This document shows positions 2,578 through 54,997 of a stretch of DNA of 64,000 nucleotides, one piece after another. The position numbers and the translations under genes were made by a program. The stretch lies in the NCBI RefSeq assembly GCF_003790525.1, contig NZ_CP033635.1. One strand, written 5' to 3'. How positions within the stretch are numbered: position 1 is the stretch's first letter; each line of letters starts with the position of its first letter. A model generated the notes under the pieces. The model was not told the origin of the DNA. It ran no database searches and saw only the letters and a program-made list of their open reading frames with translations. This DNA is from Escherichia coli. Lineage in GTDB: Bacteria; Pseudomonadota; Gammaproteobacteria; Enterobacterales; Enterobacteriaceae.

Positions 2578-4623
<2,046 letters not shown>

Positions 4624-4766
4624 TTATGTGGTCGGATGAGTTCTAATTTAGCCGTCGCCGGAGAAAAGGGAAAAGGGGAGTGCGGGGTTTGTGATGGGAT
4701 TCAAAAAGAATACGCCCGTTCGTCATGCCGGACGGCGGTAATACAGTCGTCCGGCATCGGGAAAAA

Positions 4767-14713
<9,947 letters not shown>

Positions 14714-18449: not shown

Positions 18450-18477
18450 TCGGTATGCCGGATCCGGCAATCGGTGA

Positions 18478-20152: not shown

Positions 20153-20172
20153 CTGATATATATAAAGAAAAA

Positions 20173-20198
20173 GGCTGACGATTTCTCGTCAGCCTTTG
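20173..20198. terminator. Hairpin terminator after yqjH, also downstream of the tRNA remnant
   Basis: ggctgacg-atttct-cgtcagcc followed by tttgct. Confidence 0.5.
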
Positions 20199-20205
20199 CT
20201 ATGTC

Positions 20206-20252
20206 TGGTGGCCCCTGCTGGACTTGAACCAGCGACCAAGCGATTATGAGTC
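20206..20252 (-). tRNA. ileX: 3'-terminal 47 nt of a tRNA-Ile (ileX-type) gene; truncated tRNA remnant serving as island att core
   Basis: tggtggcccctgctggacttgaaccagcgaccaagcgattatgagtc is the reverse complement of a tRNA 3' half (T-arm, acceptor stem, CCA); similarity to tRNA stops abruptly at 20253. Confidence 0.7.
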
Positions 20253-20448
20253 ATGAGGCAAGTTCGTTCTATATTGTTTTTGTTTGTTCGTGATTGCTTT
20301 ATTAGTTGTTTGTAATCAATAAATTATGTGATTTTCCCTGTCTCCGCTTGGTTCCGTTTTTTCTTCATTGTACGATCGTTACCTGACCCATTACCTGACC
20401 CAAAATCACGAGTTATTCTGATTGTTACTGGTTTAGAAAAGAGGTTCT

Positions 20449-21765: not shown

Positions 21766-21894
21766 GGGAGTTCCTGGTTGCTGTACGAATTGTGTACAAT
21801 TGATGGGTATTGTTGATGCACTTGGTTCTTGTATTGTTTACTATAATTATTGAGGTAAATTTTCGTGCCGGTATTACTCAGAGGGGATTCAAAA

Positions 21895-22491
21895 ATGGCT
21901 GTAATTCCAATGTCTTACTCCCCTGCTACTGTAGCTCGTCGTTTTTCGATACTGGATGGAGTAACTATTCAGGGCGTGCTTTACCAGATCATCTGGGATC
22001 CAAAGACTCCGTTTGCTGCGGTAATCGAAGCTGCACCTTCTGTTATTGATGGTGATGTTCGCCATAAGGTTGTTGCCACTCTGGAGCTTCAGCGTCGTCC
22101 CCGGCTTGAAGGCGTGTTTGTCCAGAAATTCTGGGAAGAACAGGATGTTGCTCAGATTGAAGGGATTGTTGTCGATGGCGCTGTACGTGATGTTGGTCTT
22201 GCAACGTTTGTTTATGAAACGATAGTCACAAAAGCGGGCGTTGTACTATTAAGTGATAACGAGCAATATGAAGGAGGTAAAGCTCTCTGGCAGCATATTG
22301 CGCGTCGTTCAACGAATCTGAAGGTGTTTATTTTAGATACTGATTCCGCACGGTATTACCCGTTTGATGGCGAACGGATCAGTTATGACGGGAAAAGCAT
22401 CCCGGAATCAGAAATCTGGAGTGAACATCCTGAGCGAAACAGACACGCTGTCGTTCTTGTGGCTGAATCTGTTAATGGTAAAGCCGCATAA
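21895..22491 (+). CDS. Hypothetical protein (198 aa), integrase-proximal cargo
   Basis: Track ORF 21865..22491; ATG at 21895 preceded by AGAGGGGA RBS. Weak resemblance to GNAT motif A (VVDGAVRDVGLATFVYE) is not conclusive. Confidence 0.4.
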   Translation: MAVIPMSYSPATVARRFSILDGVTIQGVLYQIIWDPKTPFAAVIEAAPSVIDGDVRHKVVATLELQRRPRLEGVFVQKFWEEQDVAQIEGIVVDGAVRDVGLATFVYETIVTKAGVVLLSDNEQYEGGKALWQHIARRSTNLKVFILDTDSARYYPFDGERISYDGKSIPESEIWSEHPERNRHAVVLVAESVNGKAA

Positions 22492-22538
22492 TTTGCTGAG
22501 TGTCTCATTTTTTGAGATCTTGCTGGAAAGTCTCCTTT

Positions 22539-22561
22539 GGGGATAGCGAACTGCTATCCCC
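22539..22561. terminator. Bidirectional hairpin between convergent cargo genes
   Basis: ggggatagc-gaact-gctatcccc perfect 9-bp inverted repeat between stops at 22491 (+) and 22574 (-). Confidence 0.45.
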
Positions 22562-22573
22562 TTTCTCAGTGAG

Positions 22574-24178
22574 TTACTGTTCGACCAGACATTTTCCCCA
22601 TAAAGGTCGTATCGAGTATCTATCTTCGCTATATGGATTTATTTTATTTTTTTCCCTCTGTGCTATCAGCAACGTGTCGATCTCATCCTTAATAATGTGT
22701 TGAACTGCTTGACGGTAACGGTTAAGCGAAGTGTCACTGATATCTTGTGGAAGTTGTAGACTGCCATCTGCCTTGACAAGTTCATTTACACCATCTTTAA
22801 TTCTGCGTCCCTGACCATCAGGTATACCTTCATTCAGATCATAGCCTTTTAGTCCTGCAAGACGAATATTCACGTCAATCTTTTCTGTACGTATCTTTTT
22901 GTTACTTACCAACAGAATTTTATTGGCGTTATACCATTTTTCAAATATTTCCAGTTGTTTCATGATGTTTGTGAAGTTATTCAGTTCGCTCCTGAATTCA
23001 ATAGATTTTCTAATTTTACGCTCTTTTGCATCAATGTTTATTCCTGGATAATTTATTTCCATTTTTAACGGTTCTGTGTATGCCTGTTGCAGGCAATCAG
23101 CAAGATTCATTGCTGCATCCTGCAGGGTATTGGTATAAATCAGTTTCAGAAGTTCATCACGCTGTATAGTGATTTGACAATAGTCTTTTTCCCATGCGGT
23201 GGTGTTTTCAATCGTGTCACTTTCATCGGAAATAATTGTTGTGAACTTCCAGGTGTAACGAATAAAATCATTTCCTTTAAAATATTGCACTAATTTATTT
23301 AACCATTCATATATTTCCAGAGCATAAAGTTTAACGTATCCATCATATATTATCTTTGTTGCATTTTTGTTGGCTAGCGAAAACATTTTGTCCACGAATT
23401 CTGTACGCCCGATTGTTAGCAATTGTTTTCTAAGTTTACTCACATCGTTAGTATCTGGTTTCTCACAATTCCAGGGACTTTTGTATTCATTTTCAAAAGG
23501 AGAAAGCCATTCAGGAATCTCTGTTTCTGAGTGATAGCAGTTGTTAATAGCCAAACCAAGGGTTCTGGCAAGTATCGCTGATTCATCAATTTGATGGTAT
23601 CGGTTCAGTTGTTCCAGTAATTCTTTAGTACATGAGTGCGCAACAGAAAGATCCTGATGGCAATATCCTTGTCGAACCAGAGCGGGAAGTGGTGAGCAAT
23701 GAGCTTTACAATCTGTCAGAATATTGAACAAATCGTTTCTGACGAATTCTTCCATCTCAGGTGTTTTCCAGCCACCACTATTTTGGCCGACAAATTTTGC
23801 TGTTGGTTCCCTGTTCATATCTCCCCAGGTTTTCAGGCTGACGAGTCTGTTATCAAAACCATTGTATAAATGGCACATAACCTGAAAAGCAGCATACAGA
23901 TCTTTAGATAGTGGATTATCGGTCTCACTTATGGAGTAGTTCTCTCTGTTTTTCTCTAAAATACTTTGGAGTTTTGTGTTAGCGCGTAATGCCGAGAGAA
24001 TCCGATGTTGTTCATCAAACCAAGGACGATATTCTGGATCCAGATACAATCTGCGTGCTTTGAAAATGAGTAGAAGCAACTGTTCGGAAACAGCTTCATG
24101 TATGTGGGGAAACGGCATGGAGGTGCCGGATAAAACACGATAGTACGGGTGGTTTGTTTTTACCTTTTTAGTTACCAT
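22574..24178 (-). CDS. Hypothetical 534-aa protein, low GC; candidate phage-defence or abortive-infection protein
   Basis: Long uninterrupted ORF in an AT-rich block between integrase and alpA; no motif I can assign confidently. Confidence 0.5.
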   Translation of the reverse strand: MVTKKVKTNHPYYRVLSGTSMPFPHIHEAVSEQLLLLIFKARRLYLDPEYRPWFDEQHRILSALRANTKLQSILEKNRENYSISETDNPLSKDLYAAFQVMCHLYNGFDNRLVSLKTWGDMNREPTAKFVGQNSGGWKTPEMEEFVRNDLFNILTDCKAHCSPLPALVRQGYCHQDLSVAHSCTKELLEQLNRYHQIDESAILARTLGLAINNCYHSETEIPEWLSPFENEYKSPWNCEKPDTNDVSKLRKQLLTIGRTEFVDKMFSLANKNATKIIYDGYVKLYALEIYEWLNKLVQYFKGNDFIRYTWKFTTIISDESDTIENTTAWEKDYCQITIQRDELLKLIYTNTLQDAAMNLADCLQQAYTEPLKMEINYPGINIDAKERKIRKSIEFRSELNNFTNIMKQLEIFEKWYNANKILLVSNKKIRTEKIDVNIRLAGLKGYDLNEGIPDGQGRRIKDGVNELVKADGSLQLPQDISDTSLNRYRQAVQHIIKDEIDTLLIAQREKNKINPYSEDRYSIRPLWGKCLVEQ

Positions 24179-24957
24179 AATGTTAAATTCTTCCGTCTAT
24201 TGCATAGCTGTTTCCAGTAGAGAAACTTGATACAGTCCTTTGTCAGGACATTGATACAGAGTTAACAGCCTCTACGAAATGGGAATCAGTTATGCAGTGG
24301 CATTATACGATGCTGAATCTAATACGATATCCTTAGCGTTTATTCCTGATTTTTTTACGAGCATTCCCTTTTGTTGCATATTGCTCAGGACGCAAATGAT
24401 TTTACGGTTATAGCCCTCTACAGTCACGTCACTTTCATCTGAAAATATGTATCGTTTTCATTCAATTATTATCTTTTGTCTGCACTTTAGCTTTAGAAAG
24501 TTGGCAAAAATCAACTCCCTCTTACAAGTTCTATTATCGCCAGAAGATAATTTTGTGAACTTCGTCACGTTTTCAAACTAATGTTGTGGGGGCTTTTCTG
24601 GGGAGAATTTTTGGTCACTACCCCTCCTCTTGATATCATAGATTATAACAAGATTTTTTTTGTTTTTGTCTGCATAAAATAACCTACGAATATTGTGATT
24701 TTGATTTTTATTTTGTATACCAAAAAGCATTGTTTAAGTTATTTTTATATTGTGACTTTCTTTGTTGTTATTGTGTTATTAGAAGTCAGTTAATTAAATC
24801 ATTTCTCACAATTTGATTTCTTGGTTGTGCAAATGTATTGTTTTGCTCGTGAGTTGCTGGTGCTGTTCAACAGCATACCACTACAGATAGATGTAGTGAT
24901 TTGAGCAGCTCACATGCATATACAATCTGAAAATCATGAATATATAAGGAGAGCAAT

Positions 24958-25185
24958 ATGTGGAAGCCGTTAAGAGATGAGAACCGTTTATCAATTTTGA
25001 AGATCTATGGATACACCTGTGACAGACTGGTACGAGAAAAGGAACGCCAGAAAATTACGTCTATTTCTCGTTCACAAGCCTGGAAACTGGAACGTGAAGG
25101 AAAATTCCCGCCACGTAAAACTATTGGAAAGAAATCCTGTGGGTGGTTATTAAGTGATCTATTGTGGTGGATTAGTCAGTATTAA
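24958..25185 (+). CDS. alpA: AlpA-family phage regulatory protein / excisionase-like HTH
   Basis: 75-aa ORF; ISRSQAWKLEREGKFPPRKTIGKKSCGWLLSDLLWWI fits the AlpA/Xis-type HTH pattern; preceded by a ~780-bp AT-rich non-coding region. Confidence 0.65.
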   Translation: MWKPLRDENRLSILKIYGYTCDRLVREKERQKITSISRSQAWKLEREGKFPPRKTIGKKSCGWLLSDLLWWISQY

Positions 25186-25247
25186 CCTTATAGTATCAGA
25201 ATAATATATATTTCTATATTTTAATTTTATAATTAAAAAGGAGTTTC

Positions 25248-25994
25248 ATGATGAAACGTGTCTCTTTCTCTCTTGCAGAAACATATGAAGCTGATGTAAT
25301 TAAAAAGTATCAGCATTTAAAAAAATGCTCATTTTCAGCAGCGATTAAAGAGTGTTTAAAGCTAGGGGCTCCTGTTTTAAACAGGATAAATGAAAATATT
25401 GCTGCTATAACTGATATAGAGGATAAGCTACGTCAGTTTTTTAATGAGGAACCATTTGTGCAACGGACAAAGCCTGAAATAACAAAAGGAGAGTTTTTTC
25501 ATAGCATTTATAAATCGCATATCAAATATGAATATGATGTTCTCGATAGAAAGATATTTCCTCATGAAAGCACCAGAAATGCTATGGGAGTTGCAGAGAA
25601 AAAGGGAATTAAAGAGAATGCGACCTTAATGCTGGAATATTATAAAGTTGAGAAGGCAATTTGTATTTACACGAACAGAAAAGTTTCCCATACCCTGAAT
25701 CGTGCAGGAGGGTTTTATAAAACCATTCTGATTAAAACCAGTGTTTTTGGGGATTATTTTTTTGACTTTTGCAATTCAGTTTGCCTGCCGATAGATGAGT
25801 TGATTGAGTATGGTACGAAAGAAACAGTGAGGCGACATCAGATTCGTAGTACAGGATTTTGTACTTTTCATATTCCGATTTTTTATATCAATAATAAGGC
25901 TGTAATAGTGCCTGTTCTGAGAACAGAGGAAGTTTCACAAAGTTCCAGAACAGGTGGAGATGTTATTATTATTAACCCATTTGAAGATGAATGA
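25248..25994 (+). CDS. Hypothetical protein with N-terminal ribbon-helix-helix-like segment
   Basis: 248-aa ORF; N-terminus MKRVSFSLAETYEADVIKKYQHL resembles a CopG/RHH beta-alpha-alpha pattern; remainder unassigned. Confidence 0.4.
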   Translation: MMKRVSFSLAETYEADVIKKYQHLKKCSFSAAIKECLKLGAPVLNRINENIAAITDIEDKLRQFFNEEPFVQRTKPEITKGEFFHSIYKSHIKYEYDVLDRKIFPHESTRNAMGVAEKKGIKENATLMLEYYKVEKAICIYTNRKVSHTLNRAGGFYKTILIKTSVFGDYFFDFCNSVCLPIDELIEYGTKETVRRHQIRSTGFCTFHIPIFYINNKAVIVPVLRTEEVSQSSRTGGDVIIINPFEDE

Positions 25995-26215
25995 TTATGG
26001 CCCGCGTAGATTTATTCATAACCCAGAAATCGTGGTGTAAATGATGAACAGAAACCGCTTTCTGAGGTTAAAGAGAGCAATCATTACCCGGGAGTGGCCA
26101 ACTCTTTTATCGAGTACTTTTCCGATGTATCTGGAGAGCCTCCCTTAGAAAAGAGTAATGCGACTCAGGAAAAAACAGGTTCAATAATTAATTCATGACA
26201 CCAGTTTGAGGCATT

Positions 26216-26776
26216 ATGGCGAGTTTTGCATACATAGACTCTGAAAAATGGTCAAAACTTAATCGCTTAAAATCCATGATTCAGAGATATTTTAAAGAAC
26301 CACTATTGCAGTTAACAGGCGAATTGGGTCGCCCGGATTATACTCTGGCAGACAGAAAACGGTTAGTTCGACTCCTGACGCAGGATATGCAAAGGGGTGA
26401 TATTCTGATTACTAAATCGTTAACTTGTTTTGGTAATACGCCGGAAAAAATACAGGAGGTTTTATCTTTAAGTATCAGACAAGGTATTAATATTTGCTTT
26501 TTTACGTCATCAGAGTTGCCGGATGGTGATGATATTCCTGTGGTACTCACCGGGATGATTTTACCTACAGATATTAGAGGAAAAATTCCCGACATCAGTA
26601 TCCGGAAAATTAAAAGAAAACCAGGAAGGAAAGAAGGGAGTATTCATAGTAAAAATATCAGACAGTTGAAATTGCAGGGGTTCAGTCAGTCACAAACAGC
26701 CAGAAAATTAAGCATCAGTTTATCCACTGTAAAAAGACACTGGGATAAAGGTATTGTTGATCTAACTGCAGAGTAA
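26216..26776 (+). CDS. Serine-recombinase (resolvase/invertase)-derived protein with C-terminal HTH; catalytic motifs degenerate (YagL-like)
   Basis: 186-aa ORF; RGDILITKSLTCFGNT aligns with resolvase GDTLVVxKLDRLGRS but lacks the RVS serine motif and DRLGR arginine; C-terminal QSQTARKLSISLSTVKRHW HTH. Confidence 0.5.
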   Translation: MASFAYIDSEKWSKLNRLKSMIQRYFKEPLLQLTGELGRPDYTLADRKRLVRLLTQDMQRGDILITKSLTCFGNTPEKIQEVLSLSIRQGINICFFTSSELPDGDDIPVVLTGMILPTDIRGKIPDISIRKIKRKPGRKEGSIHSKNIRQLKLQGFSQSQTARKLSISLSTVKRHWDKGIVDLTAE

Positions 26777-26970
26777 CATTTTATAGTCCTTGTAGCTATT
26801 GGCAATGGAGTTATAAATACATGTGCGTTGGATAGGTAATATATATTATATCTGTGATGTATAGTATATGTGTAATGATGGATATGATGTACTAATAGAG
26901 CTAATGGTATTCTGATACCAAATAATTAGTTGTGTGTAGATCATAACTCTGTTTAATGTTTTAGAACGTT

Positions 26971-27011
26971 CTAATGTAACTGTGTAACATCATCCTGTTC
27001 TCTAATGTAAC
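26971..27011. repeat. Direct repeats ctaatgtaac (x2, 31 bp apart) upstream of the Gp2-like gene
   Basis: ctaatgtaac at 26971-26980 and 27002-27011, with a related tgtgtaac between them. Confidence 0.35.
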
Positions 27012-27157
27012 AATAGGCAGTAGCGTTTTTCTTAATTGACGCCCAGAGGGTTATATATCCCTCTGGGAACTACTGATACGAATATTAATATCTGCTTCTG
27101 TTGTGTATTGGGTAGGTTAACTATTAGCTTATCTCTGAAAGCAAAAGGAATATTAAC

Positions 27158-27772
27158 ATGATTACGATTGAAACTCTTTACGGTGAATGTCATGAGGCTC
27201 ACGGGTTAAAAATAAGAAACCAGGTGAATAACCTCTTCCAGAAACATCCCAGAATAACGGCAATACGGGTGGATCTCCATTATCCTCCCGTGATTGACAA
27301 CGGGGATACCATTACCTGTTTTCCTAACCTGAGTCCCGGAGAGATATCTCGTTTCCGTAACTCGCTGAATGCGAAAATTAATGCAGATCAACACCGTAAA
27401 AAACAACAAGGCAAACGCACCTACGCAACGTCGGTTTGTATTATCTGGGCGAAAGAATATACGCAGTCCTTTAAATGTCATTATCACGTCTGCCTTTTTT
27501 TTAACAAAGACGCCTATTACCACCTGGGAGACTATGAGCGCTCTGACACCCTGAGAGGGTTAATTACCGGAGCCTGGTACAGTGCCTTAGGGTTAGAACT
27601 GGAAGATCACCAGGGACTAGTTCATTTCCCTGCTAATGGACGTTACATCCTGGATATTAACGATCCTGATTTCCCTGAGCAATATCAGCGCTTATTGGCA
27701 CGTCTGGATTATCTGACGAAGCTCGACACTAAAGCATCAGGCCAGCGTAACTTTGGCTACAGCGGTTTTTGA
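27158..27772 (+). CDS. Inovirus Gp2-like / YagK-YfjJ family protein with HUH motif
   Basis: 204-aa ORF; HYHVCLFF (HUH-like) and conserved HPRITAIRVDLHYP block typical of the YagK/YfjJ prophage family. Confidence 0.5.
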   Translation: MITIETLYGECHEAHGLKIRNQVNNLFQKHPRITAIRVDLHYPPVIDNGDTITCFPNLSPGEISRFRNSLNAKINADQHRKKQQGKRTYATSVCIIWAKEYTQSFKCHYHVCLFFNKDAYYHLGDYERSDTLRGLITGAWYSALGLELEDHQGLVHFPANGRYILDINDPDFPEQYQRLLARLDYLTKLDTKASGQRNFGYSGF

Positions 27773-27799
27773 CCTATTGTAACTGTAAGGTGATTTATT

Positions 27800-28366
27800 A
27801 TGTATACAGAATCAAACGTTAAGCTTTCCTGTAACGCCCTCTGGCAAAAGTATGTCCTTGCAACTCTGTATCGGGCTGCAGCTACACATCCTAAAATTAA
27901 ATTATTACAATTTAAATTAATACCTTGCCCAGGTATGAACAAGGCAATTCCCTCTCTGATGGCTGATTTTACTGGTGAACTGCATAGACTAATTTCTGAA
28001 TATTTGCAGTGCAAGCGACGTAAAGATAAATCTGTTGAGCCCGCCCCTTTATATTATCTCTGGAGTAGGGAAGCTGTGGCTAACGATACCACTCCTTATC
28101 TTATGGTACTGCTACTTAATAACGATGTCTGGTGTAAGAGTCGTGAGGTGGTGGCTCTCAGAAATCTGATTGAGCAGGCGTGGGGAAAAGTATTGGACGA
28201 AGATAACTCCATTACACATCAGGTTGTGTATCCTGAAGTGCTGTCGTTGGTATTTGATGCAGCTAACACATACAACGCTGAGCCTGGTGTACTGGAACAG
28301 ACGGCCCAGGCTTACATTGAATCGCATGGTGCCATTGAACGTCATCTTGGGTGTAGTGACTTTTAA
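27800..28366 (+). CDS. Paralogue of the upstream Gp2-like protein (HUH motif degenerate)
   Basis: 188-aa ORF; N-terminus HPKIKLLQFKLIPCP parallels HPRITAIRVDLHYPP of the neighbour; the HYHV position reads PYLMV. Confidence 0.4.
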   Translation: MYTESNVKLSCNALWQKYVLATLYRAAATHPKIKLLQFKLIPCPGMNKAIPSLMADFTGELHRLISEYLQCKRRKDKSVEPAPLYYLWSREAVANDTTPYLMVLLLNNDVWCKSREVVALRNLIEQAWGKVLDEDNSITHQVVYPEVLSLVFDAANTYNAEPGVLEQTAQAYIESHGAIERHLGCSDF

Positions 28367-28440
28367 CGACGTCAGGTGATGCATAAGGGCCTTTCGCTGA
28401 GAGGCCCTGTTTACACAATTAAATAAGTCGAACCCGACCA

Positions 28441-28561
28441 GCAATTTTGACGTTGACGGCAGGATTATTGAGGGGCAATCAATGTGTTCTTCGGCAGCGA
28501 TTACGGTAGTGAACGGACCTGCTGTCTGAATGGTATCGATCCGCAAGCGTATCTGCGCCAT
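28441..28561 (+). mobile_element. Short IS66-family transposase (TnpC C-terminal) remnant, truncated by IS2
   Basis: Translates to ...SERTCCLNGIDPQAYLR, resembling the conserved LNGxDPxAYL motif near the C-terminus of IS66 TnpC; abuts the IS2 end at 28562. Confidence 0.35.
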
Positions 28562-29650
28562 TGGATTTGCCCCTATATTTCCAGACACCTGTTATCACTT
28601 AACCCATTACTGGCCCGCTGCCGTAGATATTCCCGTGGCGAGCGATAACCCAGTGCACTATGCGGATGCCATTCGTTATAATGCTCGAACGCCTCTGCAA
28701 GGTTCTTTGCTGCCGTTAACCCGTCTGGTTTGGGCATGATACTGATGTAATCACGCTTTATCGTTTTCACGAAGCTCTCTGCTATGCCGTTACTCTCCGG
28801 ACTCCGCACCGCCGTGTTCTTCGGTTCAAGTCCCAGCATCCGGGCGAACTGGCGTGTTTCATTAGCCCGGTAGCATGAACCATTATCCGTCAGCCACTCC
28901 ACTGGAGATGTCGGAAGCTCGCTGCCGAAGCGGCGTTCCACCGCTCCCAGCATGACGTCCTGTACTGTTTCACTGTCGAAGCCGCCCGTAGTGACCGCCC
29001 AGTGCAGTGCCTCACGGTCACAGCAGTCCAGCGCGAACGTGACCCCCAGTTTTTCTCCGTTATCACAGCGGAACTCGAACCCGTCAGAGCACCATCGTTG
29101 ATTGCTTTCTTTCACGGCCACTTTGCCAGTATGTGCCCGTTTCGATGGCGGTACAGCGGTTTTTCGCTCAAGCAACAGCGCATTCTGGCGCATGATCCGG
29201 TAAACACGTTTGGCATTGATAGCAGGCATACCATCAAGTTCGGCCTGTCTGCGAAGCAGCGCCCATACCCGACGATAACCATACGTGGGCAGCTCTCCGA
29301 TAACATGGTGTATACGGAGAAGCACATCCGTATCATCTGAGTGACGGCTGCGGCGACCATCTTTCCAGTCATCGGTTCGTCTGAGAATGACGTGCAACTG
29401 CGCACGCGACACCCGGAGACAACGGCTGACTAAGCTTACTCCCCATCCCCGGGCAACAAGGGAGACCGTCATTCCCGGTTCAAAGCTCTGCTGAACAATA
29501 GCGATCTTTTCCTGTGTAGTACGCCGTCTGCGTTTCTCCGGCCCTAAGACATCAATCATCTGTTCTCCAATGACTAGTCTAGAAACTAGTATTAAGACTA
29601 TCACTTATTTAAGTGATATTGATTGTCTGGAGATTCAGGGGGCCAGTCTA
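28562..29650 (-). mobile_element. IS2 copy with a ~242-bp internal deletion (1089 bp against ~1331 bp expected)
   Basis: IS2 terminal sequences at both ends (tggatttgcccctatatttccagaca at 28562; complement of tagactggccccctgaatctccagacaa ending at 29650). Confidence 0.75.
28573..29559 (-). CDS. IS2 transposase, in-frame InsC(N-terminal 37 aa)-InsD fusion created by the internal deletion
   Basis: [37 protein letters not shown] (InsC HTH start) runs directly into [20 protein letters not shown]... (InsD) through to ...NRCLEI; DDE region intact. Confidence 0.7.
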
Positions 29651-40716: not shown

Positions 40717-41511
40717 TGAGCCGCCCCGGGAATCCTGGAGACTAAACTCCCTGAGAAAGAGGTAAACAGAATGACTAAAAATACTCGTTTTTCCCCCGAA
40801 GTCCGTCAGAGGGCGATTCGTATGGTTCTGGAAAGTCAGGGCGAATATGACTCACAGTGGGCGGCAATTTGTTCCATTGCCCCAAAGATTGGCTGTACAC
40901 CGGAGACTCTGCGTGTCTGGGTGCGCCAGCATGAGCGGGATACCGGAGGCGGTGATGGCGGGCTCACCACCGCTGAACGTCAGCGTCTGAAAGAGCTGGA
41001 ACGTGAAAATCGTGAACTGCGCCGCAGTAACGATATCCTTCGCCAGGCTTCCGCTTATTTTGCGAAGGTGGAGTTCGACCGCCTCTGGAAAAAGTGATGC
41101 CACTGCTGGATAAGCTGCGTAAGCTGTACGGGGTCGGACCGGTATGCAGTGAACTACATATTGCCCCGTCAACGTATTACCACTGTCAGCAACAGCGACA
41201 TCATCCTGATAAACGCAGTGCCCGTGCGCAGCGCGATGACTGGCTGAAGAAAGAGATACTGCGCGTATACGATGGGAATCATCAGGTATACGGTGTGCGT
41301 AAAGTCTGGCGTCAGTTGTTACGGGAAGGAATCAGGGTAGCCAGATGTACAGTGGCGCGCCTCATGGCGGTTATGGGACTTGCCGGTGTTCTCCGGGGTA
41401 AAAAGGTCCGCACTACCGTCAGCCGGAAAGCCGTTGCCGCAGGCGACCGCGTAAACCGTCAGTTTGTGGCAGAACGTCCTGACCAGTTGTGGGTGGCTGA
41501 TTTTACTTACG
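40717..41511 (+). mobile_element. IS3-family element (IS629/IS1203-like) 5' part: left IR, orfA and orfB N-terminal section, ending at the group II intron
   Basis: Left end tgagccgccccgggaatcctggagac; orfA 40771..41097 ([26 protein letters not shown]...), orfB from 41094 reading ...QLWVADFTY up to 41511. Confidence 0.65.
40771..41097 (+). CDS. IS3-family transposase OrfA (HTH/leucine-zipper subunit)
   Basis: 108-aa ORF; conserved IS3-family orfA; 4-bp overlap with the orfB start. Confidence 0.75.
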
Positions 41512-44269
<2,758 letters not shown>

Positions 44270-44497: not shown

Positions 44498-46921
44498 ATG
44501 GATCATAGTGTACATAACAAGCTCATCTCATTTATTTGGAACATTGCCGACGACTGTTTACGTGATGTGTACGTTCGCGGTAAGTACCGCGATGTGATTT
44601 TACCTATGGTGGTATTACGACGTTTAGATACGTTACTTGAACCCACCAAAGAAGCCGTGCTTGAAGAGGTCAAGTTCCAAAAAGAAGAGATGCAAGCCAC
44701 GGAGCTTGATGATGAACCATTGAAGGCGGCTAGTGGTTATGTTTTTTACAATACATCTAAATGGACCCTGAAATCCCTGTTCAACACCGCAACGAATAAC
44801 CAACAGATATTACTCGCCAACTTTGAAGAGTACCTGCTTGGCTTTAGCGATAATGTTAAAGAAATCATTGAATGCTTTAACCTCAAGTCGCAAATTCGTC
44901 ACATGGCCTCAAAGCAAGTCCTTCTTGATGTCGTCGAAAAGTTTGTTTCCCCTTACATCAACTTAACTCATGAAACGATCGAAGACCCAGATGGCAACAA
45001 GATGCCAGCCCTTACTAACCTGGGTATGGGGTACGTGTTCGAAGAGTTGATCCGTAAGTTCAACGAGGAGAATAACGAAGAAGCCGGTGAGCACTTTACA
45101 CCTAGGGAAGTGATTGAGCTGATGACACACTTGGTTTTTGACCCAGTGAAAGAGCAGCTACCATTGACCATGACCGTTTACGACCCTGCGTGTGGTAGCG
45201 GTGGTATGCTCACTGAATCTCAAAACTTCATTGAAGAGAAATACCCGAACGACAGCCGAGATATTTACCTTTACGGCAAAGAGATCAATGACGAGACCTA
45301 CGCGATTTGTAAATCGGACATGATGATCAAAGGTAACAACCCTGAGAACATCAAGGTAGGCTCAACCTTGTCTACCGACGAGTTTGCGGCTTCTCGCTTT
45401 GACTTTATGTTGTCTAACCCGCCATACGGTAAGAGTTGGGCGTCTGAACAGAAGCATATTAAAGACGGTAGTGACGTGATTGACCCACGTTTTAAGGTTA
45501 GCCTGAAAGACTATTGGGGAAATCTCGAAGTGGTGGATGCCACGCCACGTTCAAGTGATGGCCAGCTGCTCTTTTTAATGGAAATGGTCAACAAGATGAA
45601 AGATCCGAGCGTAAGCCCATTAGGCAGCCGGATTGCTTCTGTTCATAACGGCTCATCGCTCTTTACCGGTGATGCGGGCGGTGGCGAAAGTAACATTCGT
45701 CGCTTCATCATTGAAAACGACATGCTAGATGCCATCGTTCAGTTACCAAATAACCTGTTCTACAACACCGGCATTACCACTTACATTTGGGTGTTGAACA
45801 ACAATAAACCTGAGGCACGTAAAGGTAAGGTGCAACTGATTGATGCCAGCTTGCTATACCGTAAGTTGCGTAAGAACTTAGGTAACAAAAACTGCGAATT
45901 TGCGCCTGAGCACATCACGGAAATCACCGATACTTACCTCGCGTGTGTGGACGTTGAAAGAGCACTTGATGCAAACAATGATCCTATCGGTATCGCCAGT
46001 AAGGTCTTTAGTAATGACGACTTTGGCTACTACAAAGTCACTATCGAGCGCCCAGATCGCCGCAAAGCCAAGTTTACTCAAGATGCCATAGCCCCACTGC
46101 GTTTTGATAAGCAACTTAGTGAAGTGATGGAGTACGTGTACGCAGAGCACGGCGAACGTGTTTACGAAAAAACTGGCTACGGGTCAGATCAGAAAAAGAG
46201 CTTCTTAAAATCCATCGAGAAAGACATTCTTTCTTGGTGTGAAGATAACGACATCAGTCTCAATGCTAAGGCTAAGGCCAAACTGCTTGATGTGAAACAC
46301 TGGCTGGCGCTAAAAGCATTGCTTGAAACTGCACAAACGCTGATGGCTGACATCGGTAGCATTGAATTTGATGACTTCAATAGCTTTAAAACCCAAGTTG
46401 ATAAATCGCTAAAAGCCCATGCTATTAAGCTTTCAGCACCTGAGAAAAATGCCATTCTTCACGCGGTGAGCTGGTATGACGAAACCGCCAAGAAAGTGGT
46501 TAAAAAGGTAGTTAAATTAACGGGTGATAAATTAAACGACCTGCTGGAGCGCTATGAGTGTGAAGTCGCTGACTTGCCAGATTTTGGTTATTACCCCGTT
46601 CCTTCAGCAGAAGGCGGTAAAAAAGGCGAGTATATCACTTACGAGACCAATTCAGACCTGCGAGATACAGAATCTGTTCCATTAAAGCAAAGCATTTACC
46701 AGTACTTCCTAGATGAAGTGAAGCCTCATGTCGATGAAGCATGGATAAACCTAGATACGGTAAAAATTGGCTATGAAATCAGCTTCAATAAGTATTTCTA
46801 CCGTCATAAACCGCTGCGTAGTTTAGAAGAGGTCGCAACCGACATCATCAACCTAGAACAAAAAGCCGAAGGTTTGATTGCGCAGATTCTTGGTGCGGAA
46901 GTAAAAAAGGTTCAGGGGTAA
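44498..46921 (+). CDS. hsdM: Type I restriction-modification system methyltransferase subunit HsdM (long form, ~807 aa)
   Basis: Track ORF from 44462 (TTG); ATG at 44498 with AGGAAAAG RBS; N6-adenine MTase motifs DPACGSGGML and NPPYG; ~300-aa C-terminal extension. Confidence 0.85.
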   Translation: MDHSVHNKLISFIWNIADDCLRDVYVRGKYRDVILPMVVLRRLDTLLEPTKEAVLEEVKFQKEEMQATELDDEPLKAASGYVFYNTSKWTLKSLFNTATNNQQILLANFEEYLLGFSDNVKEIIECFNLKSQIRHMASKQVLLDVVEKFVSPYINLTHETIEDPDGNKMPALTNLGMGYVFEELIRKFNEENNEEAGEHFTPREVIELMTHLVFDPVKEQLPLTMTVYDPACGSGGMLTESQNFIEEKYPNDSRDIYLYGKEINDETYAICKSDMMIKGNNPENIKVGSTLSTDEFAASRFDFMLSNPPYGKSWASEQKHIKDGSDVIDPRFKVSLKDYWGNLEVVDATPRSSDGQLLFLMEMVNKMKDPSVSPLGSRIASVHNGSSLFTGDAGGGESNIRRFIIENDMLDAIVQLPNNLFYNTGITTYIWVLNNNKPEARKGKVQLIDASLLYRKLRKNLGNKNCEFAPEHITEITDTYLACVDVERALDANNDPIGIASKVFSNDDFGYYKVTIERPDRRKAKFTQDAIAPLRFDKQLSEVMEYVYAEHGERVYEKTGYGSDQKKSFLKSIEKDILSWCEDNDISLNAKAKAKLLDVKHWLALKALLETAQTLMADIGSIEFDDFNSFKTQVDKSLKAHAIKLSAPEKNAILHAVSWYDETAKKVVKKVVKLTGDKLNDLLERYECEVADLPDFGYYPVPSAEGGKKGEYITYETNSDLRDTESVPLKQSIYQYFLDEVKPHVDEAWINLDTVKIGYEISFNKYFYRHKPLRSLEEVATDIINLEQKAEGLIAQILGAEVKKVQG

Positions 46922-46927
46922 GTCGTT

Positions 46928-48238
46928 ATGATGAAGATTTCTGAAATGCCGAAATATGACGATTATGTAGATTCTGGGGTTGAATGGTTGGGACGAGTAC
47001 CTGCTTCTTGGGAATTAACACGATTAGGCACTCGCTTTAATGAGCGTAGATCTAAAGTTTCAGACATTGACTACCCCGCACTCTCCGTAACAAAAAAAGG
47101 CGTTCTACCTCAATTAGATAATGCGGCCAAAACAAAAGATGGCGATAACAGAAAGCTAGTAAAAGAGGGTGACTTTGTTATAAATAGCCGCTCTGATCGG
47201 AAAGGTTCTAGTGGAGTATCTGACAGAGATGGATCAGTATCGCTTATAAATATAGTGCTTAAACCAAAAGGGATTCATCCAAAGTTTTCTGAGCATCTTT
47301 TGAAAAGTCATGCATTTATTGAGGAATACTATCGTGTTGGACGTGGAATTGTCGCAGATTTGTGGACTACTCGATACGATGAAATGCGGACGATTACTAT
47401 ATCTGTTCCTTCACTAGAAGAGCAAACCCGTATCGCCAACTTCCTAGACAAGAAAACCGCTCTAATCGACGAAGCGATTTCGATCAAAGAAAAGCAAATT
47501 AATCTGTTAAAAGAACATAAGCAGATCATCATCCAACAGGCGGTGACCCAAGGGCTTGATCCCAATGTGCCAATGAAAGACTCCGGTGTGGATTGGATTG
47601 GAGATATTCCAGAGCATTGGGAAGTTGTGCCTCTAAAAAGGTTGGCGGTCTTGAGCCCTTCTGTGAAAGTTTCAAATAGAAAGTCCAAAGAATTAGTTAC
47701 TTTCTTAGCGATGGAAAAGGTTTCAACAGATGGATTTATTGATCAAGATACATTAATGCCTATATGTGATGTGAGCCAAGGTTTTACGGTTTTTAACCGG
47801 GGGGATGTGATTGTTGCAAAAATTACACCTTGCTTTGAAAATGGGAAATCTGCTTGGCTTAACAATCTTCAAACTGAGTTTGGATACGGCTCAACCGAGT
47901 TTCACGTTTTAAGATGTGGTCAGAGAATTATAGGAAGTTTTCTCTACTTAATCGTTAGTTCGCCCCTTTTTCTTAATGCCGGTGAGGCTATGATGACTGG
48001 TTCAGCTGGTCAGAAGCGCGTGCCTAGTTCATTTATCCAAAACTTTCCTACCGCAATTCCCGGAGTTGCAGAGCAAGAAAAAATAGTATCAAAGGTAAAA
48101 GAGCTGTTTTCACAGATTGATGTTGTTGTGGCTTCTACGGTAAATCAAATCGAAAAGCTCAAAGAATACAAAACCACCCTGATCAACAGCGCCGTGACAG
48201 GAAAAATAAAAATCACCCCAGAAATGGTTGAGCAATAG
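46928..48238 (+). CDS. hsdS: Type I R-M specificity subunit HsdS (two target-recognition domains)
   Basis: 436-aa ORF 6 bp after hsdM; duplicated architecture with conserved central and C-terminal repeat regions. Confidence 0.8.
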   Translation: MMKISEMPKYDDYVDSGVEWLGRVPASWELTRLGTRFNERRSKVSDIDYPALSVTKKGVLPQLDNAAKTKDGDNRKLVKEGDFVINSRSDRKGSSGVSDRDGSVSLINIVLKPKGIHPKFSEHLLKSHAFIEEYYRVGRGIVADLWTTRYDEMRTITISVPSLEEQTRIANFLDKKTALIDEAISIKEKQINLLKEHKQIIIQQAVTQGLDPNVPMKDSGVDWIGDIPEHWEVVPLKRLAVLSPSVKVSNRKSKELVTFLAMEKVSTDGFIDQDTLMPICDVSQGFTVFNRGDVIVAKITPCFENGKSAWLNNLQTEFGYGSTEFHVLRCGQRIIGSFLYLIVSSPLFLNAGEAMMTGSAGQKRVPSSFIQNFPTAIPGVAEQEKIVSKVKELFSQIDVVVASTVNQIEKLKEYKTTLINSAVTGKIKITPEMVEQ

Positions 48239-49425: not shown

Positions 49426-52400
49426 ATGGTCAGTCAAACCAATGAACAAGCATTAGAGTCGGCCATTGAGAAATGTCTGGCTGGGATCAGTACTGAAGAG
49501 CTTAAAGAGGGACTGAGTCAGCAGTCACTGGGTGCTGGATACTTCATTGGTGCTGCTAGTGACTTTAATATGCAATATGCCATTGATGAACGTTTTTTCT
49601 GGCAATTTCTGCAAAAGACACAAGAAGTAGAGTTGGCCAAACTGCAAAAGAACAACCCCTCAGATTGGCAACGTAAGTTACTCGAACGATTTGACCGACT
49701 GATTAAGAAGCATGGCATTCTTCATTTACTTAAGAAAGGGCTAAGCGTAGACGATGCTCATTTCAATTTGCTCTATCCAGCCCCTTTGGCAAGTAGTAGT
49801 GAGAAGGTAAAGCAAAACTTTGCAGATAACGTGTTTAGTTGTACTCGCCAAGTGCGCTATTCCATGGTAAATCCCCTACAAGAAATCGACATGGTATTGT
49901 TTATCAACGGAATACCCTTGATAACGCTGGAGTTGAAGAACGCATGGACCGGGCAAACAGCACGTTATCACGGCCAAAAGCAGTATCGAGATGATCGGGA
50001 TGCAACTCAGCCATTGCTGACCTTTGGCCGCTGCCTAGTGCATATGGCGGTCGATACCGACGAAGTGTATATGACCACCAAGTTATCAGGTAGCAGTACA
50101 TTCTTCTTGCCGTTCAATAAAGGTCACAATCTTGGACAAGGCAACCCGCCGAATCCATCTGGCCATAAAACGGCATACCTATGGCAAGAAGTATTCACTA
50201 AAGACAGCTTGGCGAATATTATTCAGCATTTTGTGCGTCTGGATGGGTCAAGCAAAGATCCATTACCAAAGCGAACCCTGTTCTTTCCTCGATACCATCA
50301 ATTGGATGTGGTGAGAAAATTAGTAGACCATGCCGCCCAGCACGGTGTCGGTCAGACTTACTTAATTCAACACTCAGCCGGTTCAGGTAAGTCTAACTCG
50401 ATTACCTGGGCAGCTTATCAGCTAATTGAAACCTATCCTGCTTCGTCTGATGTGGCAGGCGGAAAAAGCTTGGAGCAGCCGTTGTTTGACTCTGTGATTG
50501 TGGTCACCGATAGACGCCTATTGGACAAGCAGCTGCGGGATAACATTAAAGAGTTTTCTGAAGTAAAGAACATTATTGCCCCAGCGAATAAGTCTTCTGA
50601 GCTTAAGCAGGCGCTGGAGAATGGCAAAAAGATTATTATAACGACGATTCAGAAATTCCCGTTCATTATTGATGGTATCGCCGATCTTAGTGACAAGCGC
50701 TTTGCAGTGATCATCGATGAAGCACACAGCTCACAGTCTGGTTCGGCGCATGACAATATGAACCGAGCGATGGGCAAGTCTGAAGTCGAAGAGGCAGAAG
50801 ATGCTCAGGATAAAATCCTTCAGGCGATGAGATCGCGTAAGATGCGCGGGAATGCGTCGTACCTGGCATTTACAGCGACACCAAAAAACAGCACTTTGGA
50901 GAAATTTGGTCAACGCCAAGAAGATGGCTCTTACAAGCCGTTTCACTTGTATTCGATGAAACAAGCCATTGAAGAAGGCTTCATCTTGGATGTGCTGGCA
51001 AATTATACGACGTACAAAAGTTATTATGAGATTGAGAAATCAATTGCTGATAACCCTGAGTTTGATACCAAAAAGGCGCAGAAAAAACTCAGAGCTTATG
51101 TAGAACGAAGCCAGCAAACAATTGATATCAAGGCAGAGATTATGCTGGAGCATTTTGTTCCGCATGTCGTGAATACGAAAAAGCTCAAAGGTAAAGGTAA
51201 AGGAATGGTGGTCACTCAAAATATTGAGGCGGCCATTCGATACTACAAAGCGATAAGGCGAATACTTGAGGAGCAAGGAAACCCGTTTAAAGTTGCCATT
51301 GCTTTCTCAGGAACCAAAGAAGTTGATGGTATTGAATATACCGAAGCAGATATTAATGGTTTTGCCGAGTCAGATACCAAAGATATGTTTGATACCGATG
51401 AGTATCGACTTTTAGTGGTTGCTAACAAGTATCTGACTGGGTTTGACCAGCCTAAGCTTTGCGCCATGTATGTAGATAAGAAGCTCGCCAGTGTCTTGTG
51501 TGTTCAGGCGCTATCTAGGCTCAATCGCAGTGCACCTAAGCTAGGGAAGAAAACAGAAGACTTGTTTATCCTGGATTTTTTCAACTCGGTTGAAGATATT
51601 CAATCAGCATTCGATCCTTTCTATACAGCAACGTCATTGTCCCAAGCTACAGATATAAACGTACTGCACGAGTTGAAAGATGAAATGGACGATGTCGGTG
51701 TGTACGAGTGGTATGAAGTTGAAGACTTTGTGACGCGTTATTTCAAGAATGAAGACGCCCAAACACTCAGTCCAATCATTGATATTGCCGCAGCGCGGTT
51801 TGACCATGAACTAGATCTTGAAGCTGAAGCTAAAGTGGACTTTAAGATTAAAGCCAAACAGTTCGTTAAAATCTATGGGCAGATGGCTTCTATCATGCCT
51901 TATGAAATGGTCAGCTGGGAAAAACTGTTTTGGTTCCTGAAGTTTTTAATACCGAAATTGAAAGTGGAAGATCCCGATGCTGATGCTATTGATGAGCTTC
52001 TCGATTCTGTCGATCTGAGTTCATACGGTTTGCAACGTGTGAAGCTTAACCACAGCATTAAACTTAGTGACCAAGAAGCGGAGCTTGATCCTCAAAATCC
52101 GAACCCACGTGGGGTGCATGGCGGTGAAAAAGAAACTGACCCGCTGGATGAAATCATTCGCACATTTAATGAGCGATGGTTCCAGGGCTGGAGTGCCACA
52201 CCTGAAGAGCAAAAGGTTAAGTTCGTGAACATCGCTGAAAGTATCCGCAATCACCCTGACTTCGAATCGAAATACAAAAACAACCCAGATCCCCATAATC
52301 GAGATTTGGCCTTCGAAAAAATGCTCAAGGAAATCATGCTGCAACGCCGTAAAGATGAACTTGAGCTCTACAAGTTGTTCGCAGGAGATTCAGCATTTAA

Positions 52401-52443
52401 AGCCTCGTGGACGCAAAGTATGCAACGAATGGTAGGTAGGTAG
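49426..52443 (+). CDS. hsdR: Type I restriction enzyme endonuclease/helicase subunit HsdR
   Basis: 1005-aa ORF; SF2 helicase motifs (HSAGSGKS Walker A, IIDEAHSS DEAH box) downstream of an N-terminal nuclease region. Confidence 0.85.
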   Translation: MVSQTNEQALESAIEKCLAGISTEELKEGLSQQSLGAGYFIGAASDFNMQYAIDERFFWQFLQKTQEVELAKLQKNNPSDWQRKLLERFDRLIKKHGILHLLKKGLSVDDAHFNLLYPAPLASSSEKVKQNFADNVFSCTRQVRYSMVNPLQEIDMVLFINGIPLITLELKNAWTGQTARYHGQKQYRDDRDATQPLLTFGRCLVHMAVDTDEVYMTTKLSGSSTFFLPFNKGHNLGQGNPPNPSGHKTAYLWQEVFTKDSLANIIQHFVRLDGSSKDPLPKRTLFFPRYHQLDVVRKLVDHAAQHGVGQTYLIQHSAGSGKSNSITWAAYQLIETYPASSDVAGGKSLEQPLFDSVIVVTDRRLLDKQLRDNIKEFSEVKNIIAPANKSSELKQALENGKKIIITTIQKFPFIIDGIADLSDKRFAVIIDEAHSSQSGSAHDNMNRAMGKSEVEEAEDAQDKILQAMRSRKMRGNASYLAFTATPKNSTLEKFGQRQEDGSYKPFHLYSMKQAIEEGFILDVLANYTTYKSYYEIEKSIADNPEFDTKKAQKKLRAYVERSQQTIDIKAEIMLEHFVPHVVNTKKLKGKGKGMVVTQNIEAAIRYYKAIRRILEEQGNPFKVAIAFSGTKEVDGIEYTEADINGFAESDTKDMFDTDEYRLLVVANKYLTGFDQPKLCAMYVDKKLASVLCVQALSRLNRSAPKLGKKTEDLFILDFFNSVEDIQSAFDPFYTATSLSQATDINVLHELKDEMDDVGVYEWYEVEDFVTRYFKNEDAQTLSPIIDIAAARFDHELDLEAEAKVDFKIKAKQFVKIYGQMASIMPYEMVSWEKLFWFLKFLIPKLKVEDPDADAIDELLDSVDLSSYGLQRVKLNHSIKLSDQEAELDPQNPNPRGVHGGEKETDPLDEIIRTFNERWFQGWSATPEEQKVKFVNIAESIRNHPDFESKYKNNPDPHNRDLAFEKMLKEIMLQRRKDELELYKLFAGDSAFKASWTQSMQRMVGR

Positions 52444-52468
52444 GTAGAAAGGAGTGATGGTTTGCTGA

Positions 52469-52591
52469 AGGCAGTCTCAGAGTTATTAGGTGGGTCACCA
52501 GGCCTGAAAGGACGTCAAATTGCCAAGGAGCTGGGGCTGGATAAGTCACAAGTGAACTCGTTTCTTCACAAACACCAGGATACGTTTTGAA
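52469..52591 (+). pseudogene. 5' fragment of a small HTH gene truncated by the IS911 left end
   Basis: TTG-initiated frame LLKAVSELLGGSPGLKGRQIAKELGLDKSQVNSFLHKHQDTF ends in a TGA supplied by the first bases of the IS911 IR. Confidence 0.3.
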
Positions 52592-52922
52592 GTGGCACAC
52601 TGAATTTGGCCACCTGAACAGAGGTGATATGCTCACCTCAGAACAACACAGGTGCTCCAATGAAAAAAAGAAATTTCAGCGCAGAGTTTAAACGCGAATC
52701 CGCTCAACTGGTTGTTGACCAGAACTACACGGTGGCAGATGTCGCCAAAGCTATGGATGTTGGCCTTTCCACAATGACAAGATGGGTCAAACAACTGCGT
52801 GATGAGCGTCAGGGCAAAACACCAAAAGCCTCTCCGATAACACCAGAACAAATCGAAATACGTGAGCTGAGGAAAAAGCTACAACGCATTGAAATGGAGA
52901 ATGAAATATTAAAAAAGGCTAC
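52589..52922 (+). mobile_element. IS911 5' part: left IR and truncated orfA, interrupted by IS30
   Basis: tgaagtggcacactgaatttggccacc terminal repeat; orf[36 protein letters not shown]... ends abruptly after ...ILKKAT where IS30 terminal sequence begins. Confidence 0.7.
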
Positions 52923-53685
52923 TGTAGATTCAATCTGTCAATGCAACACCCCTTTCAATTATCTCTTTCGGTGTTTTGAACTTCAGTGTCTTTCTCGGTC
53001 TGTTGTTTAGCTGAGCAGCAACCAGATCTAGTTCATGTTGAGTATATTGGGCAAGACATGTCTTTTTAGGAAAGTACTGCCGAATTAGCCCATTTGTGTT
53101 CTCATTTGTTCCCCGCTGCCAAGGACTCTGAGGATCGCAGAAGTAAACTTTAACGCCGGTGCTGACAGTAAATTCTAGATGTCTGGCCAGTTCCATTCCT
53201 CTGTCCCATGTCAGTGATTTTCTGAGTTCTGACGGTAAACTCAGGAATTTGTCGGTAAGAGCCTGATTTACTGAGACAGAATCTTTGCCCCTGAGTCTAA
53301 GGATGATCGTATAACGTGATTTTCGGTCTACAAGTGTGGCTATATGAGAGTTTTTTGTACCTGAGACTAAATCGCCCTCCCAATGCCCCAGAGAGCGTCT
53401 GTTATCGATATTTCGGGAACGTTCGTGAATTGGTGTTCCGTTCACTATGTTAATCGTACCTCTTTCGCCTTTGCGGGTATGACGCCTGCCATGGCGAAGG
53501 CTATGCGACCGTCGCAGATGCTGTATATTCAGGTGGTGTAGCGCTTCACGGCTACGAAAGTACAGCGTTTTATAAATTGTCTCAGGTGATATTCGCAGCG
53601 TTTTTTGACGTGGTTTTGTTCGCCTTAACCATCCTGATATTTGCTCTGGAGACCATTTCATCTCCAGCTTTTCCAGAACAAGGTA
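52923..53685 (-). mobile_element. IS30 3' portion (right IR plus C-terminal ~255 codons of the transposase), 5'-truncated
   Basis: Terminal tgtagattcaatctgtcaatgcaacacc at 52923; transposase frame (track ORF 52930..53847) is IS30-like from ...LVLEKLEMKWSPEQISGW... to ...[10 protein letters not shown]; upstream ORF codons derive from unrelated sequence. Confidence 0.7.
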
Positions 53686-54271
53686 AGCGTAAACCGACCG
53701 CCGTATGTAGCCATTAGACAAGAATTGGTAACTTAGACGCCCATCTGACACAGACGGACATCTAAGTATGGAATTACAGGACTGGCGAAAAGAACCTCTA
53801 AAAAGTATTCGAATGAATTCAAACTTCGTATGATTGACTGGCATCACAACCCGGTGCTTGTGTGGCCCAGATTGCTCGAGAAAATGGCGTCAATGATAAT
53901 GTTATTTTCAAATGGCTCAGACTTTGGCAAAACGAAGGGCGTATATCGCGGCGTCTTCCGGTAACAACCTCTTCTGACACTGGCGTTGAATTATTACCTG
54001 TGGAGATAACGCCGGATGAGCCGCAAGAACCGGTGGCTGCTCTTACTCCGTCTTTATCCACCCAGACTACTGTCAGTGCCAGCTCCTGCAAGGTGGAGTT
54101 CCGTCACGGTAACATGACGCTGGAAAATCCTTCACCAGATCTGCTCACAGTGTTGCTCCGTGAACTGAGCGGGAGGGGACAATGATCTCACTCCCGTCAG
54201 GTACCCGCATCTGGCTGGGTGCCGGCATTACCGATATGCGTAAATCCTTCAACGGATACGACATATGCTGA
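53686..54271 (+). mobile_element. IS66-family 5' portion: left end, tnpA (orf1) and the first ~30 codons of tnpB
   Basis: Begins gtaagcgtaaaccgaccgcc; ORF 53862..54185 (MAQIARENGVNDNVIFKWLRLWQNEGRISRR, HTH-like); 54182 starts MISLPSGTRIWLGAGITDMRKSFNG (IS66 TnpB N-terminus) then stops. Confidence 0.5.
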
Positions 54272-54997
54272 AGGAGGAGCAGTAATGGATTAAGTGATAA
54301 CAAATGCCCAGAAATAGAGGTTTAAATCCTGCTTAGTTAGTACATAAATACTATTTTGATGAAAATTATTATATGTCACCTCGGATTTTAATCAGGCGCC
54401 CAGATTAAATCAAGTATTGAGCGCCTGATTATGTTTATTCATTAATATCTGTCATTGATTGTCTTATTATCAGTTACCCCCGTCTTAATCAGAGTTTTCA
54501 TTTATTTTTAATGCATAATCAGATGCCGCCTCATCATTATCCTCAGTATTATCATAGCCGAAAACTTCTCCCGGGCACGGGCGTTCACGATAATAGTCAT
54601 CGTTATAGTTTTCATCGTCAGATAATGATATGTCGTATTCTGAATATGATTCACCACAATTATACATAAAATCATCTCCTTTGGGATTGTTACAATAATT
54701 AGTGAGTTTATTCGAAAAAATAATGAGCGCCAGACCAATCCACCCGACTTTTGATTATAATCATGAAGATACCTGTCTCAGTACAAATAGAATCAAACTC
54801 AATACAGCATGATTCACCTTTATATTCTCTCAGGGAAACCAAATACCACTATTCAACTATTAAGAATAAAATTCTGGAGGTGCGATTATCTGAAGATACC
54901 TGCATCCTAAATAATTTCAGACAGATATTATCTCCGTGAATCCCCCGCCACCTTTCCGGTGCGCGGGGTTTTGTCTTTTTTCACCGGGAATACATGT

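Follow-up and report, generated by a model that had tools for sequence, protein, structure and literature searches.

A pile of three truncated insertion sequences marks the boundary between two modules of an E. coli chromosomal island, and we favour, at a probability of roughly 0.6, a history in which nested insertions were followed by recombination between IS66-family copies, leaving inert remains. Upstream of the pile, the window (the whole stretch of 64,000 nucleotides analysed) carries a type I restriction-modification operon consisting of hsdM, hsdS, a DUF4268 gene and hsdR, which ends at 52443. Downstream of it lies a module with a gene for a 60-aa hypothetical protein, a YeeP-like GTPase, Ag43, DUF932 and antirestriction genes, and the pile is the seam joining the restriction-modification module to this GTPase-Ag43 module. 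An earlier note, made from the sequence alone, had described three abutting partial IS elements with sharp junctions, and reference alignments bear this out in the order and orientation given there. From left to right, the stump of a small wHTH gene (52462-52590, plus strand) is followed by nt 1-335 of IS911, an IS3-family element (52588-52922, plus strand), by nt 462-1221 of IS30 (52923-53682, minus strand) and by the first ~576 nt of an IS66-family element (53683-54256, plus strand). BLAST E-values for the segment matches were 0, excluding chance, and in genomes that match the window at 100% identity over 52300-54500, PGAP calls an identical set of four transposase genes, each partial or frameshifted.

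None of the three IS elements keeps its distal half at the pile, and the continuation of the wHTH locus is missing as well. A search of the window found none of these missing parts elsewhere, the one exception being a 170-bp IS911 orfB piece at 43782-43951 that is not related to the pile. Because no remnant has two ends or an intact transposase, none is mobile alone; autonomous transposition of any of the three is impossible, and the pile is the inert remains of successive transposition events, not a working element. On its right side the whole stack ends at a single breakpoint within the IS66 tnpB gene (54256/54257). The possibility, raised in the earlier note, that a single known composite element contains all three segments as contiguous parts does not hold for the pile as a whole: both a composite transposon and a single catalogued composite element were rejected, the left edge being the IS911 left inverted repeat (IRL) and the right edge having no IS terminus. 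A composite transposon formed by IS911 copies bracketing the hsd genes was rejected as well, since the upstream IS3-family element has no IS911 left end; no second copy of IS911 nt 1-335 is present in the window.

Several features around the hsd genes were noted separately. A group II intron reverse-transcriptase region (41484-42821), 99% identical to the K-12 CP4-6 IS911A-1 tail/eyeA/ykfC, is embedded in IS3/IS911-related sequence immediately 5' of hsdM and is followed by the orfB piece at 43782-43951. Over ~0.5 kb of hsdS (46882-47407) the window differs from strain XD35, while hsdM and hsdR around it are >99% identical, a divergence typical of target-recognition-domain swapping. At the hsdR stop codon, a GTAG/GGTA tetranucleotide run (52432-52447) differs by one 4-bp unit from most relatives, which leaves the HsdR C-terminus unaffected.

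At each internal junction of the pile, one element is present at an intact terminus and its neighbour at an internal point, an anatomy that reads, on sequence, as the signature of nested insertion; the earlier note's nested-insertion reading is thereby supported. The favoured history comprises the following steps, the insertions being read from anatomy and from complete counterparts elsewhere: 1) IS911 entered after codon 42 of the wHTH stump, just downstream of hsdR; 2) IS30 entered IS911 at nt 335/336 in inverted orientation; 3) an IS66-family element most likely entered IS30 at nt 462; and 4) this IS66 copy, nested in IS911::IS30 beside the hsd genes, would have undergone homologous recombination with an older IS66 copy, already truncated, that lay upstream of the GTPase-Ag43 module. 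The last step would have deleted or replaced the intervening DNA, so that one breakpoint ends all three elements.

The target of the first insertion was examined through the small ORF at the left edge. This ORF (52462-52590) appears in the ORF list with a TTG start, an AGGAG 7 nt upstream and 42 codons. Its stop codon, TGA at 52588-52590, is formed by the first three bases of the IS911 IRL, just as the earlier note had held in ascribing the stop to the IS911 terminus. Against Pfam, it gave only a weak match to HTH_23 (E=0.008) under the Pfam cut-off. Queried with the 42-aa ORF, a word-indexed protein search gave truncated versions only, and an exhaustive phmmer search was needed to reach full-length homologues. 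The homologues it yielded span 180-372 aa and align by their N-termini to ORF residues 1-42, the intact ones (362-372 aa) having an N-terminal wHTH and a HATPase_c-like C-terminal domain. An NCBIfam scan of these wHTH-HATPase_c homologues matched no family, and a PADLOC scan gave marginal matches only.

Among complete E. coli genomes, an intact version of the HTH gene was not found. Each of the 59 that have the hsdR tail shows either the window's IS911 junction or another junction, in which position 52540 leads into mid IS911 orfB. Since the 52540 breakpoint differs from the pile's IS911 junction, the hsd module has been cut beside IS911 sequence at least twice. An uninterrupted site occurs in four metagenomic contigs with the same hsd operon, where it reads ...CAGGATACGTTT|GTCAAAAACTC... 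and the protein continues '...DTFVKNSNHE*', giving an ORF of 49 codons. The stop codon of this allele falls where the homologues have tryptophan (a W-to-stop change), which indicates that the target of IS911 would have been a decayed stump. Judged from this allele, the only uninterrupted one found, IS911 appears to have removed 7 codons from a gene that had already decayed. The sequence 3' of the insertion point in the uninterrupted alleles is absent from the window.

The junction at 52540/52541 to mid-orfB of IS911 was observed in a further ~36 genomes, on plasmids in 20 cases (e.g. GF4, locus positions 3788-4075, and pM160133_p3, from locus position 3788). Relatives of the wHTH + HATPase_c type (P0016, P0026 and P0029) are uncharacterised; one such relative adjoins a Bil-like ubiquitin-conjugation cluster (Multi_ubiq, E2, JAB and ThiF). 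The proximity to a type I restriction-modification operon here and to a Bil-like cluster elsewhere hints at a defence-island accessory gene family.

The IS911 piece is 99.7% identical to the copy on EPEC E2348/69 plasmid pMAR2, 98.2% to K-12 IS911B and 90.7% to the GF4 copy. Its IRL at 52588 is TGAAGTGGCACACTG. The IS911 terminal inverted repeat begins TGAAGTGG and has an internal TGGCCACC block; at 52588 the window reads TGAAGTGGCACACTGAATTTGGCCACC, and the curated K-12 elements IS911A and IS911B both begin at the base aligned with 52588. A complete IS911 has an HTH-bearing orfA, then a DDE orfB reached by a -1 frameshift, and two inverted repeats; it moves by a copy-out-paste-in pathway and generates a 3-bp duplication. 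The window retains orfA codons 1-87 (52660-52920), matching Pfam HTH_Tnp_1 (E=3e-15) and NCBIfam transpos_IS3 (E=1.7e-14), and is devoid of the frameshift site, orfB and the right inverted repeat (IRR), so that it is a fragment rather than a complete member. The same blocks as in the window's IRL are found in the published IS911 IRR oligo TGAAGTGGTCAACAAAAACTGGCCACC (PMC2909936). The naming is supported by PGAP, which calls the continuation of the pMAR2 copy 'IS3-like element IS911 family transposase'. With full OrfA being 100 aa (PMC2909936), the ORF at 52660-53010 consists of 87 OrfA residues and a 29-residue tail derived from IS30.

The IS911/IS30 junction lies at 52922/52923, exactly where the earlier note had orfA stop and the IS30 terminal repeat begin. 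IS30 is inverted and inserted between IS911 nt 335 and 336. The piece on the minus strand runs from nt 1221 to nt 462 and is 99.7% identical to K-12 IS30A over 760 nt; with this identity (membership being set at at least 95% plus the IRR) and the terminal IRR TGTAGATTCAATCTGTCAATGCAACACC at 52923, it belongs to IS30. It encodes the C-terminal 250 codons of the transposase (52933-53682, stop at 52930-52932), with profile matches to NCBIfam transpos_IS30 (E=7e-74) and Pfam rve, and is without the IRL, the promoter and the N-terminal ~133 codons that include the DNA-binding region.

We compared this junction with its counterparts elsewhere in the species. In K-12 KpLE2, IS911B::IS30D (insO fragment/insI3) is joined at the identical nucleotide with IS30 inverted as in the window, the IS911 part being 98.2% and the IS30 part >99.7% identical. 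There, however, IS30D is complete and followed by IS600, whereas the window's IS30 is cut at nt 462 by the IS66-family left end. The pMAR2 plasmid has the same IS911 variant, site and orientation and displays the full nesting, namely IS911 nt 1-335, a complete inverted IS30, an AC duplication and the remaining IS911; unlike in the window, IS30 is complete, IS911 goes on past it and there is no IS66 insertion. In K-12 CP4-6, IS911A::IS30A (insN fragments/insI1) has IS30 at the same AC dinucleotide with a 2-bp duplication, but in the opposite orientation, with IS30 complete and in an IS911 variant that is ~9% diverged. The window's IS30 has lost its other end, and the AC duplication is visible at the same site in pMAR2 and K-12.

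Junctions were counted in a set of 5,426 complete E. coli genomes. In the window's orientation, the IS911/IS30 junction occurs in 1,215 of them, on chromosomes and plasmids, and in the K-12 CP4-6 orientation in 1,039, while the IS911 site is uninterrupted in 2,448. The AC dinucleotide in IS911 orfA is thus occupied by IS30 in both orientations across E. coli. IS30 generates 2-bp duplications on insertion and prefers hot spots, and IS911 in K-12 is interrupted by IS30A (PMC9333248); on these grounds and because of the occupancy in both orientations, we speak of a hot spot for IS30 here. A published IS30 hot-spot consensus for scoring the IS911 site was not found in the accessible literature. 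Given the 1,215 genomes and the site and orientation shared with K-12 IS911B::IS30D, IS911(1-335)::IS30 is a widespread pre-existing composite that is not peculiar to the island of the window. It may have arrived at the wHTH site already assembled, and entry of IS30 may have come either before or after IS911 reached that site, both timings being compatible with the data.

IS30 meets the IS66-family piece at 53682/53683. The earlier note was right that a junction exists here; it had placed it at 53685, and the true position is 3 bp further left. The left end at 53683 starts with GTAAGCG and reads GTAAGCGTAAACC... from its first base. Membership in the IS66 family is indicated by this GTAAGCG terminus and by the overlap of the tnpA stop and tnpB start (ATGA) at 54182-54185, both genes being named by PGAP. 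The tnpA gene (53768-54185) has lost 1 bp at each of two places, after 53798 and 53836, and is labelled 'frameshifted' by PGAP; TnpB is labelled 'missing C-terminus', as only its codons 1-25 (54182-54256) are present. Homology ends at 54256, in tnpB codon 25; the piece has neither the remainder of tnpB nor tnpC nor the right inverted repeat. The stretch singled out in the earlier note ended at 54271, which is indeed the end of the tnpB read-through (54257-54271, plus strand; stop TGA at 54269-54271), but IS66 homology stops before this tail, which reads into an unrelated flank. Beyond 54256 the flank is conserved and leads to the GTPase and Ag43 genes.

By the ISfinder convention, iso-forms share at least 95% nucleotide identity. 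The IS66 piece is 95.5% identical to an intact unnamed copy in strain GPEC1054; its identity to the ISEc23 named by PGAP in uk_P46212 is 90.4%, below this threshold, and we do not assign it to ISEc23. Elements of the family generate an 8-bp duplication on insertion. In uk_P46212 (a sat island), a complete ISEc23 lies within IS30, with both IS30 halves present and the relative orientation as in the window. It is inserted at IS30 nt 464 with a CCAGAACA duplication (~8 bp), 2 bp away from the window's junction at nt 462. Unlike in the window, the interrupted IS30 is flanked by IS600 fragments and not by IS911, and the element shows only the 90.4% identity given above. The IS30::ISEc23 of uk_P46212 is an independent event, analogous to that in the window but not identical to it. 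Among the genomes searched, none was found with a complete IS66-family element exactly at IS30 nt 462 and the other IS30 half beyond it; from the anatomy of the terminus and the ISEc23 case 2 bp away, we infer an insertion of the IS66-family element at this nucleotide.

Two sister genomes, LR-72 (locus positions 2942-5278) and ET474 (3234-5494), have extra complete IS66-family elements within the same pile, namely ISEc22 at the IS911/IS30 boundary and another inside the IS30 fragment. The graveyard is still gaining IS66-family insertions.

The right edge of the pile is far more widely distributed than the pile itself. The whole pile (52300-54500) was found in 29 of the 5,426 genomes and the IS30/IS66 junction in 36, 31 of them exact, while the junction between the truncated IS66 element and the right flank is present in 780, including O157:H7, UPEC 536 and CAVP814. 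Most of these 780 are without the IS911 and IS30 parts, and the pile therefore probably did not come about by mere assembly and later truncation on the spot. The IS66 stub upstream of the GTPase-Ag43/Cah module in O157:H7, UPEC 536 and others has its breakpoint after tnpB codon 25, as in the window. In O157:H7, UPEC 536 and CAVP814, the right flank is 95-98% identical to that of the window, but the left flanks are unrelated. Where the window has IS30 and IS911, an intact IS66 IRL in O157:H7 abuts an orfB remnant of another IS3-family element, and in UPEC 536 a truncated IS66 left end adjoins cadB. The O157:H7 left flank was also considered as a diverged IS911/IS30 pair and rejected, the orfB remnant being unrelated. 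With neither tnpC nor a right end, a stub is unable to transpose; the right breakpoint common to these genomes was therefore inherited, and the exchange of left flanks came later. The constituent pieces are older than the pile.

Consistent with an exchange of left flanks, the IS66 piece is a mosaic, 84-94% identical to the O157 stub vs 91-98% over most of the flank, and is closest to the intact GPEC1054 copy (92-99% identity). This mosaic identity fits recombination or conversion between IS66 copies. The tnpB breakpoint also abuts unrelated left DNA elsewhere and IS911::IS30 is widespread; for these reasons we propose that the stack was probably put together partly by recombination between IS copies, and not solely by events in place. 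Junction distributions and mosaic identity, both read from sequence, point to the recombination step as the most likely one, and the mosaic of the stub could also come from gene conversion by other copies.

The alternative that all events took place where the pile now stands, with insertion of IS911, IS30 and the IS66-family element followed by one deletion rightwards from IS66 tnpB to the GTPase-upstream region, is possible but rather unlikely. It accounts for the same junction anatomy, a single deletion is parsimonious, and what lay 3' of the IS911 target is indeed missing from the window. It fits poorly, however, with a tnpB/right-flank breakpoint in 780 genomes as against a pile in 29-36, with an IS911/IS30 junction that is identical in 1,215 genomes of many contexts, and with O157:H7, where the breakpoint comes with an intact IS66 left end that borders unrelated DNA even though the truncated element is immobile. 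We consider improbable an adjacent deletion in which intramolecular transposition from the left end of a nearby IS66-family element deleted the DNA that had separated its IRL from IS30 nt 462. Such an end-mediated event would likewise leave an intact IRL against a truncated neighbour; in strain Res13, ISEc23 lies 34 bp outside a complete IS30, making the two neighbours without nesting, and a similar terminus-flush difference is found at the IS3 end at 28562. Against it, uk_P46212 has a true IS66-family insertion in IS30, with target duplication, 2 bp away, and an intermediate in which the window's element neighbours an intact IS30 was not found. A retained function, for example of the truncated OrfA fusion ORF (52660-53010) as a trans-regulator of IS911 copies, is very improbable: OrfA retains its HTH and most of its leucine zipper and 1,215 genomes share the fusion junction, but hitch-hiking and hot-spot re-insertion explain this persistence equally well, and K-12 curators and PGAP label such pieces pseudogene fragments.

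The pile sets the exact limit at which the type I restriction-modification module of the island gives way to the GTPase-Ag43 module. This boundary is an IS graveyard, and the modules were probably joined there via recombination between IS copies. Its exact junction sequences can be used as lineage markers, the whole pile for 29 genomes and the older IS66 stub for 780. They also call for caution, as sharp nested junctions are no proof that all events occurred in place. The arrangement is already known in that its component parts are annotated in the K-12 reference and RefSeq; the pile is real but ordinary and has little importance beyond housekeeping. Two IS66-family elements that are 90% identical to each other lie 2 bp apart in IS30 (in the window and in uk_P46212). 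It is doubtful that the pile reflects a real preference of insertion sequences for each other as targets; if IS66-family elements did have an undescribed hot spot in IS30, the nesting of one IS in another would be programmed in part, as a kind of safe-harbour targeting, and would not be neutral accumulation.

A separate C-terminal remnant of an IS66-family tnpC is present on the plus strand at 28484-28561. The earlier note had it at 28441-28561; the remnant exists, with demonstrable homology starting at 28484 and not at 28441. This segment matches residues 477-511 of ISEc23 TnpC in tblastn (E=7e-11), and by blastn 28510-28561 matches ISEc23 nt 2369-2421 (53 nt, 90.6%). At 28561/28562 an IS3-family terminus cuts it off, the IS3 end reading TGGATTTGCC from 28562. 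Compared with strain XD35 (locus positions 18139-28541), the window (28516-28562) is without a ~10.4-kb block containing IS5, a GGDEF gene, pgaABCD and phoH, and the difference stops exactly at the IS3-family terminus at 28562. The absence of this block looks like an IS-end adjacent deletion. The tnpC remnants of the window and XD35 have different small internal deletions.
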